From the NCBI GenBank assembly GCA_963713615.1, contig CAVQMM010000001.1:2048001-2112000 (forward strand): a stretch of DNA of 64,000 nt. Direction: 5' to 3'. How positions within the stretch are numbered: the first letter of the stretch is position 1; every line of letters starts with the position of its first letter. The notes under the pieces are model-generated. The model did not search any database and was not told the origin of the DNA. It saw nothing but the letters and a program-made list of their open reading frames with translations. Shown here piece after piece: positions 11,836 to 12,293 of the stretch. Made by a program: the position numbers and the translations under genes. Origin of the DNA: an uncultured Chlamydiae bacterium. GTDB lineage: Bacteria; Chlamydiota; Chlamydiia; Chlamydiales; JAJFMA01.

Positions 11836-12039
11836 TAGGCTTAGGTTGAGGCCTATGTGGCATCGCCATGGTATATGCCAAAACGGTTTTAGCAGCCTGT
11901 AGGGCTGCCATAAAGCGCATGCATAAATGGTGTTTGTAAACTGGCGTCTTGTAGCAATCCTTCAGACTGCGAAATCCCTTCCTGGCATATACCATGGCGA
12001 TGCCATGGCCTGTTGCAATATCGACCCTTCTACCATAGG

Positions 12040-12280
12040 ATTTTGCAAACGATTATCGACGGTAATAGGAAAAGACAAAAAACATTTCTCTAAGGTATCA
12101 TTTTGGCCGACGAAGGTGTGGCCGTGTGCCCTTAGCGAATGTTTGTTCGCCTGGCCCGATATGCCGCCTTCGTCGTTTGCATCATCCAATAATTCCGTTC
12201 GGGATGGTGCCAATCTTCTGATTGTGGCTCTGTAAGTAGAAGTGGAATTTGGGTGAAATTTAACGCTCACAAACACTTAA
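12040..12280 (+). ncRNA. Predicted IS110 bridge RNA (target-binding and donor-binding loops); ends approximate
   Basis: Stem 12108-12116/12167-12175 encloses CCCTT and GGCCCGA, matching the target; stem 12191-12196/12244-12249 encloses CGGGATG and GTAGA, matching the circle junction. Confidence 0.8.
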
Positions 12281-12293
12281 CAGGGCATTTATC

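Follow-up and report, generated by a model that had tools for sequence, protein, structure and literature searches.

The window, by which we mean the whole 64-kb stretch of DNA analysed here, contains an IS110-type recombinase gene flanked by two non-coding ends, and the question raised by this locus was whether the left end encodes a bridge RNA that steers the 398-aa recombinase to the TC of a host repeat. On the evidence presented below this is very probable. The insertion sequence, a chlamydial member of the IS110 bridge group, is genuine, intact and recently mobile. It is 1,768 bp long and runs from TC 12029-30 to TC 13795-96 around the 398-aa open reading frame (12294-13490, plus strand, as are all features of the element). 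A BLAST search of the genome gave nine copies that were 99.86-100% identical, seven intact and two interrupted, and no off-repeat copies or solo ends. All nine copies had identical ends and occupied the same TC position within a palindromic repeat. The junction at the left TC (left target, core and right donor) was identical in 9/9 copies, the right TC (left donor, core and right target) was recognised from the copies and the empty site, and TC was present at both junctions as well as in the empty site. Three of the nine shared identical 60-nt flanks on both sides. A second, identical copy is located within the window (59679-61446, plus strand), an unoccupied target site belonging to this repeat family lies at 8169-8182 (C1:2056169, plus strand), and one DNA sequencing run spanned the whole element with a single difference. 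The two interrupted copies (C1:1751221-1754078 and C1:3548262-3551524) carried their inserts in the right end in one case and in the ORF in the other; judged by its ORFs, the former insert is presumably IS66-like, and we take the latter to be IS21-like with long terminal repeats.

The left non-coding end (12031-12293), in which the bridge RNA is predicted to be encoded, was homologous to the left ends of relatives, and the right non-coding end (13491-13794) was about 305 nt long against a family median of about 51 nt. The element lacks terminal inverted repeats, as is typical of its group. An imperfect subterminal inverted repeat was detected at 12036-12048, with an 11/13 match to 13774-13786. 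The terminal stretch of the right end (13774-13794) contained a -35 box TTGAAA (13774-79), this subterminal repeat and the left donor CGGGATG (13788-94). Assignment to the IS1111 group was considered and rejected: the guides lay upstream of the gene in IS110 order and not downstream with the top-strand guide leading, and the right end folded with z = -0.61 (group description as given in PMC11187229). Long subterminal inverted repeats are a feature of that group, and the repeat seen here was the imperfect 11/13 one. The right end was likewise discarded as a source of a bridge RNA, since it had this same fold score and was not conserved in the homolog loci. Around the element, ferrochelatase (10333-11391), RNase III (14110-14841) and radA (14854-16224) genes were observed, neighbouring two ORFs on the minus strand (400 aa, 9050-10252; 235 aa, 8299-9006), both without a Pfam match.

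The recombinase had been described in an earlier note as a 398-aa protein of the IS110 kind and as a chlamydial ortholog, and the first description was borne out. The protein matched PF01548 and PF02371 and scored 173.7 bits against NF033542 (NCBIfam, IS110 family RNA-guided transposase; cut-off 140), and a helix-hairpin-helix (HhH)-like region at residues 196-232 was matched below the cut-off. Across 39 sequences, conservation was complete or at least 90% for residues D12, E65, D107, D110 and S320-G321. When weakly aligned with IS621 by phmmer, E65, D107, D110 and S320 fell on E60, D102, D105 and S241, its catalytic residues as given in PMC11208158. The AlphaFold model (pLDDT 86) had ISCro4/IS621 as its top 10 Foldseek matches (TM 0.57 by query), the best being ISCro4 (E 1.7e-11), and the cryo-EM complexes of ISCro4 and IS621 were matched at 16-18% identity. 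The nearest other proteins were 60-64% identical. As to the second description, the host is chlamydial, because Hc1, a chlamydial histone-like family that also scores in 1 of 14 control genomes, exceeded its cut-off in the host genome, Chlam_OMP6 gave E 7e-7, which is below its cut-off, and of the homologs for which flanking DNA was obtained the closest (60%) belonged to Chlamydiales. The word ortholog is loose with respect to IS621, at 17-18% structural identity. The subfamily spans many phyla and the element is not chlamydia-specific. Close homologs were found in 0 of 60 relatives, which gave four weak matches (E 1e-4 to 1e-6), and in 1 of 400 other genomes of the same phylum; this distribution suggests horizontal acquisition of the element, with the caveat that most of those assemblies are fragmented. 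Among the matches listed for plasmid records, only Streptomyces IS110s at 26-27% identity appeared, and no named subfamily member.

Apart from core pairing by all four guides and the 5' stem-loop, which are described below, every core feature of the IS110 bridge family that can be tested by sequence was found in the element. The mechanism is already known, and no new kind of system is involved. All motifs that had been proposed earlier for the left end were present where they had been placed. The target-binding stem-loop (12108-12175) has an outer stem 12108-22/12163-75 with a bulged GT, which includes the proposed 12108-16/12167-75, and an inner hairpin 12135-39/12146-50. The left target guide side (12124-12133) is 10 nt long, compared with 9 nt in 106 of 113 distinct family loops, and includes CCCTT (12129-33), equal to target P4-P8. 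The right target guide (12153-12161) consists of GGCCCGA (12153-59), which pairs with target P8-P14 and was supported by covariation in homologs, followed by the handshake guide TA (12160-61). The donor-binding stem-loop (12182-12256) has stems 12182-87/12251-56 and 12191-97/12243-49, the latter including the proposed 12191-96/12244-49, and an inner hairpin 12209-15/12220-28. Its left donor guide (12200-12208) begins with CGGGATG (12200-06), equal to donor P1-P7, and continues with a mismatched G at P8 and a wobble at P9. The right donor guide (12231-12242) is discontinuous: TG (12231-32) pairs with P14-P13, a TAA bulge follows, and GTAGA (12236-40) pairs with P12-P8. The handshake guide AG (12241-42) pairs with target P7-P6 after exchange. 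When the left end was shuffled 20,000 times with its dinucleotides preserved, matches to the four guides in this order arose 0 times; of 30,868 genome tiles, 5 had them, and each of these lay inside a copy of the insertion sequence. The bispecific IS110/IS621 architecture that the earlier note had proposed agrees with the guide order, the covariation, the handshake bases and the junction promoter; the circle-junction promoter, both handshake guides, the subterminal repeat and the discontinuity of the right donor guide are features added here.

The four guides differed in the strength of their pairing. The right target guide paired at 7/7 positions. The left target guide, also claimed before, was indeed present but weak, with 5 contiguous Watson-Crick pairs to the majority repeat, flanking matches and wobbles, two mismatches at P1-P2 and no pair at the core C. 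Both right guides paired the core TC, the left target guide paired its T only, and the left donor guide met it with a mismatch and a wobble and no Watson-Crick pair. In the scheme described in PMC11208160 the core dinucleotide lies within all four pairings, and the left donor guide of IS621 likewise ends at P8 (PMC11208158, section 8). The handshake guide TA goes from no pair before exchange to a Watson-Crick pair (donor P6) and a wobble (P7) once the strands are exchanged, and AG goes from a single wobble to two Watson-Crick pairs. The handshake pairs would thus rise upon exchange, from 0 to 2 in the target loop and from 1 wobble to 2 in the donor loop, which would favour insertion; in IS621, such an asymmetry does favour insertion according to PMC13626964.

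The predicted RNA was also supported by its fold. The segment 12100-12262 folded with z = -3.64, and both outer stems and the inner hairpin of the target loop were formed. For the inner hairpin of the donor loop, covariation favoured GCC 12209-11 with GGC 12226-28 and a bulged GT, and not the C12211-G12224 pair. In an alignment of 58 sequences (57 from 83 thinned loci, and the present element), 92.5% of the cells of the two-loop structure were paired and 26 of 32 pairs had changed on both sides; this was reached by 0 of 500 shuffles, and slid controls had 38-52% of cells paired. In helix 1 of the target-binding stem-loop, 99.3% of cells were paired, with compensatory change at 8 of 12 pairs. 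The single-sequence minimum-energy fold paired parts of the guides, and the open loops are therefore drawn from the family covariation and from the model of IS621. For 12040-12110, the predicted 5' region, the fold was no better than that of shuffles (z +1.24), and a search of 11300-14100 against Rfam at E ≤ 1 gave no match.

Transcription was considered with regard to the circular form. A -10-like hexamer TACCAT (12031-12036), which also holds right donor P10-P14, would receive its -35 box from the right end in the circle only. When the ends are joined, TTGAAA, 17 nt and TACCAT make up a junction promoter, predicted by sequence, and a -35-to-core length of 21 nt was common to all 125 right ends that could be parsed. 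A linear promoter scan returned 5 sites versus 3.4 expected; the junction promoter is invisible to such a scan. In the RNA libraries of two studies, contigs over the predicted bridge RNA covered 12149-12414 and 12141-12401 at a depth of 2-4; others covered separate parts of the ORF and, in the right end, 13447-13673 and 13491-13671, all depths lying between 2 and 6. Since these low-depth contigs come without strand or ends and DNA carry-over is possible, they give a weak hint of bridge RNA expression. The circle junction was absent among the joints of the contigs of 4 runs, which weighs neither way, as do the gaps in RNA cover. The sequencing runs that contain the stretch were mostly peat and soil metagenomes.

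The empty 14-mer target CGACCCTTCGGGCC was counted 256 times in the genome, and a looser search found 294 related sites including filled ones. The present copy interrupts one arm of a host palindromic repeat, a REP/REPIN-like doublet in which the arm serves as the insertion target; its left part lies at 11394-12028 and its right part at 13797-13944 (plus strand). We infer that the target belongs to a REP/REPIN-like system; in systems of this kind, a Y1 HUH transposase gene is flanked by members of a set of hundreds of extragenic palindromic doublets. The repeats occurred as inverted doublets, mostly about 180 or about 500 bp apart, and as tandem arrays with a period of about 473 bp. In the window, the repeat family was seen at 7806-8291, 11394-12030 and 13797-14008; it is nested, modular and large for a chlamydial genome. 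In a genome of the same family (G004), 252 CCCTTCGGGCY sites were found versus 3 for the reversed control, with a similar Y1 gene among them, and copies of the shared repeat core numbered 16 in genome G003 and 7 in genome G001. The Y1 transposase gene of the host (150 aa, PF01797; C1:3243391-3243840, or 892-1341 of locus L182) is directly followed by an array of a minority repeat variant that extends to 3248900, and a Y1_Tnp gene adjoins a repeat cluster in G001 and G004 too. The host's Y1 protein scored 57.6 against the IS200 TnpA model (cut-off 55) and 22.4 against the RAYT model (cut-off 80). Two further Y1 genes (38% and 25%) had no such repeats within 2.5 kb. The Y1 gene is a candidate mobiliser of the family of about 290 sites.

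These repeats are a sink for several IS families. That doublets of 2.8 kb carry the repeat's own transposase was rejected, as inspection of their ORFs revealed IS66-like insertions instead. Such an IS66-like element was observed inside at least nine repeat doublets, often beside GCTTGCGAC, and a 545-aa transposase-like ORF in 3 more; examples of these doublets are C1 433042-435846, 598760-601564, 867228-870032 and 939001-941805.

Concentration of all copies in one repeat could also have arisen in a way in which guides are needed and the protein additionally reads the DNA structure of the palindromic repeat, as reported for ISPpu10 (10.64898/2026.03.19.712850, in the portion cited). The left guide, with just 5 Watson-Crick pairs, leaves room for such a contribution, and the TC core sits in the loop of a CCC-TTC-GGG mini-hairpin beside long palindromes. 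But the 11-mer defined by the guides, which span the conserved portion of the repeat, nearly suffices: 267 of 275 CCCTTCGGGCY sites lie in the repeat arm, so 9/9 copies in the repeat are expected without any structural gate, and relatives use non-identical GGGG-TC flanks. We consider structural reading unlikely.

A guide tuned to the minority variant next to the IS200/RAYT-like gene, with the majority repeat tolerated through mismatches, is rather doubtful but somewhat more credible. The left guide side matches the minority variant at 9/10 positions and the majority one with 6 matches and 2 wobbles, and the minority cluster stands directly behind the Y1 transposase gene, where one copy is inserted. 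However, P14 is C in the majority and T (a wobble) in the minority, which makes the right guide fit the majority better; occupancy was 1 of 15 minority sites versus 8 of 269 majority sites (Fisher p 0.39); and TGCCCTTCGGGCC, the site matching both target guides, was found 0 times in the genome and 1 time in 5 relatives. It is very improbable that the target loop is vestigial and that the element lands in repeats through a half-match of the donor loop or through homologous recombination between repeats. Half-match activity has been reported for IS621 (10.64898/2026.08.31.748434, in the portion cited), repeats are abundant, and the three copies with the same 60-nt flanks could be read in this way; yet the other copies occupy distinct repeat variants, the minority variant included, the fully paired right target guide and the lack of off-repeat copies or solo ends in the genome search speak for a working loop, and the target loop and both handshake bases have moved from the family consensus exactly toward the current target. 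Steering by the bridge RNA remains the preferred reading.

Homologous loci were taken from genomes (the 80 best of 359 confirmed) and from metagenomes (the 80 best of 485 confirmed), at 45-60% amino acid identity (L021-L180). Of 161 sequences including the present element, 145 yielded the target-loop frame, with 113 distinct loops among them, 137 yielded the left junction and 125 the right end; the parser demanded TC, so loci with a different core would have escaped it. For 109 pairs of right target guide and right flank, agreement at the five positions was 0.92/0.78/0.69/0.49/0.61, compared with 0.83/0.50/0.42/0.24/0.39 after permutation, and at none of the five positions was the observed value attained in 2,000 permutations. 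Over 121 pairs, the left target guide exceeded permutation at P2-P4 (p 0.024, 0.003 and <0.001) and was near-invariant and thus uninformative at P5-P7. These permutation p-values overstate the support, because the loci are related and partly copies of one another (113 distinct loops among 145). The right donor guide read GTAGA with TCTAC in 90 distinct loops, ATAGA with TCTAT in 10, and GAAGA in 6 rows that were probably mis-parsed, and the left donor guide was nearly invariant across the family. The pattern nevertheless agrees with the covariation of guides and targets across IS110 orthologs described by Durrant et al. (PMC11208160).

Against this family background the present element stood out. 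Relatives insert at NNNGGGG-TC-AGG, mostly GGGG-TC-AGG, and of the 137 left junctions that were parsed, 136 had G before the core, the sole exception being the present element, with the target CCCT-TC-GGGCC and a target loop of CCCTT and GGCCCGA. The handshake dinucleotides are AA and CG in relatives and TA and AG here. The first donor-loop handshake base faced target P7 as C:G in 129 of 132 sequences, as G:G in 2 and as A:T only here, and the first target-loop handshake base faced donor P7 as A:T in 114, as A:A in 10 and as U:G only here. Between GGGATG and the core, T or A was present in 124 of 125 right ends and no base here. An extra A after the -35 box leaves the promoter spacing unchanged in the present element. 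Read from sequence, this is a clear natural guide reprogramming event.

The retargeting may have gone with a shift in the recognition geometry itself, in which the two left-guide registers are offset, by +1 on the donor and -1 on the target; we propose this tentatively, as a possibility that falls short of even chances. The donor-loop spacing is unchanged versus the family, and as a result pairing by the left donor guide reaches one base deeper into the core, whereas that by the left target guide is reduced by one base. The donor DNA is one base shorter, and the left target guide is one base longer and ends one base earlier on the target. The cut sites may be displaced in consequence, or bulges may take up the difference. 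Offset registers may be tolerated if only the top strands need to be exchanged, which is plausible because IS621 has been reported often to exchange one strand only (10.64898/2026.08.31.748434, in the portion cited). If the shift is real, bridge RNAs can be designed with freedom in where the left guides lie with respect to the core, and the element is a natural, handshake-optimised example with a TC core. In the likely history, the element would have originated in the subfamily with NNNGGGG-TC-AGG targets; its target loop would then have been rewritten for the CCCTTCGGGC hairpin common to the repeats of this lineage, with both first handshake bases adjusted, and one donor base before the core would have been lost and one A gained after the -35 box, the promoter spacing being kept.

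The boundaries, copies, target, guide matches, fold and covariation being observed, the further steps of the mechanism are modelled on IS621. Joining of the ends in the circle would create the promoter TTGAAA, 17 nt, TACCAT, which would drive the bridge RNA. Pairing by the target loop would involve the repeat sequences CCCTT and TCGGGCC, and that by the donor loop CGGGATG and TCTAC..CA of the circle junction. The DEDD residues and Ser320 would cut after the TC core.

Bridge RNAs have been predicted in most IS110s (PMC11208160). In comparison with IS621 of Escherichia coli (PMC11208160 and PMC11208158, as far as described in the sections cited; PDB 8WT6-8WT9), both are DEDD and serine recombinases with a left-end RNA in which the target loop precedes the donor loop, the left guides equal the top strand and the right guides are complementary to it. 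The discontinuous right donor guide (PMC11208158, section 8), the handshake guides, the junction promoter and insertion in a REP-type repeat are also shared. IS621 has a CT core and 326 aa, whereas the present element has a TC core and 398 aa with the HhH-like region. Unlike IS621, it also has a native right target guide of 7 nt and a short left target guide, an imperfect 13-bp subterminal repeat and a long right end, and the 5' stem-loop of IS621 has no stable counterpart predicted at 12040-12110. ISCro4/IS622 of Citrobacter rodentium (10.1101/2025.05.14.653916; PDB 9T56), the top fold match, has the same bridge architecture with a CT core and has shown activity in human cells; its identity to the present element is 16%. 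The TC-core IS110 subfamily (L021-L180) shares the RNA scaffold, the donor loop, the TC core, the start of the left end and the promoter spacing. ISPpu9 with ssr9 and ISPpu10 of Pseudomonas putida (PMC12288879 and 10.64898/2026.03.19.712850, in the parts cited) are likewise IS110s in repeated palindromic targets. Natural redirection as such is already known from ISEc21/ISMch6 (seekRNA), where three bases of one upstream-encoded guide were reprogrammed according to PMC11187229; the present element departs from its family in both target guides, in the first base of each handshake guide and in donor length. The main texts of PMC11208160 and of the IS622 preprint contain no mention of chlamydiae, and the subfamily may stand in their supplements or ortholog tables; among the results listed in a literature search on chlamydiae, IS110 and REP, none concerned the present element.

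There is demand for bridge recombinases as tools for genome writing. In the cited bridge-recombinase papers, in the sections consulted, the orthologs tested have CT or GT cores, and of 72 orthologs screened only 18 were functional in human cells (10.1101/2025.05.14.653916). A TC-core element from a distant subfamily widens this pool of candidates, and its value lies in the core, the distance and a natural retargeting with co-adjusted handshake and donor length. Against about 125 relatives, joint changes are seen in the target guides, the handshake bases, the donor length and the promoter spacer. These co-changes support the handshake rule from evolution, and the flexibility of register is directly testable.

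The right end contained a further feature, a module at 13556-13673 (plus strand) in which two 27-nt repeats flank a central segment complementary to both. Versions of this module of about 120 nt were detected at 71-73% identity in three other genomes of the same order (L200:1501-1620, L201:1501-1615, L208, and L202 on the minus strand), downstream of an IS3-type and another integrase-core transposase gene. It was not found in plasmids, viral contigs or the 161 loci L021-L181 and had no Rfam match; in several close IS110 homologs it appears to be the coding sequence of a read-through C-terminus, and the RNA contigs of the two studies end at 13671 and 13673. It is possibly a small RNA or a mobile module hitchhiking on unrelated insertion sequences. 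ISPpu9 also has an extra downstream module, as far as described in the sources cited above, whereas the module here occurs behind other transposase families as well and no internal donor end was found in it.

A few observations on individual relatives may be added. No right end was parsed in L021, the closest relative with flanking DNA. In a Methylococcales genome (L026-L036), at least 10 copies of one family member had heterogeneous flanks with many mismatches to the target guides, which suggests loose targeting by that member. In L101 and L103, a degenerate right-end-like sequence lay downstream of the recombinase and was followed by extra DNA, after which L103 had a second, intact right end; this pattern is consistent with stepwise growth of the right end.
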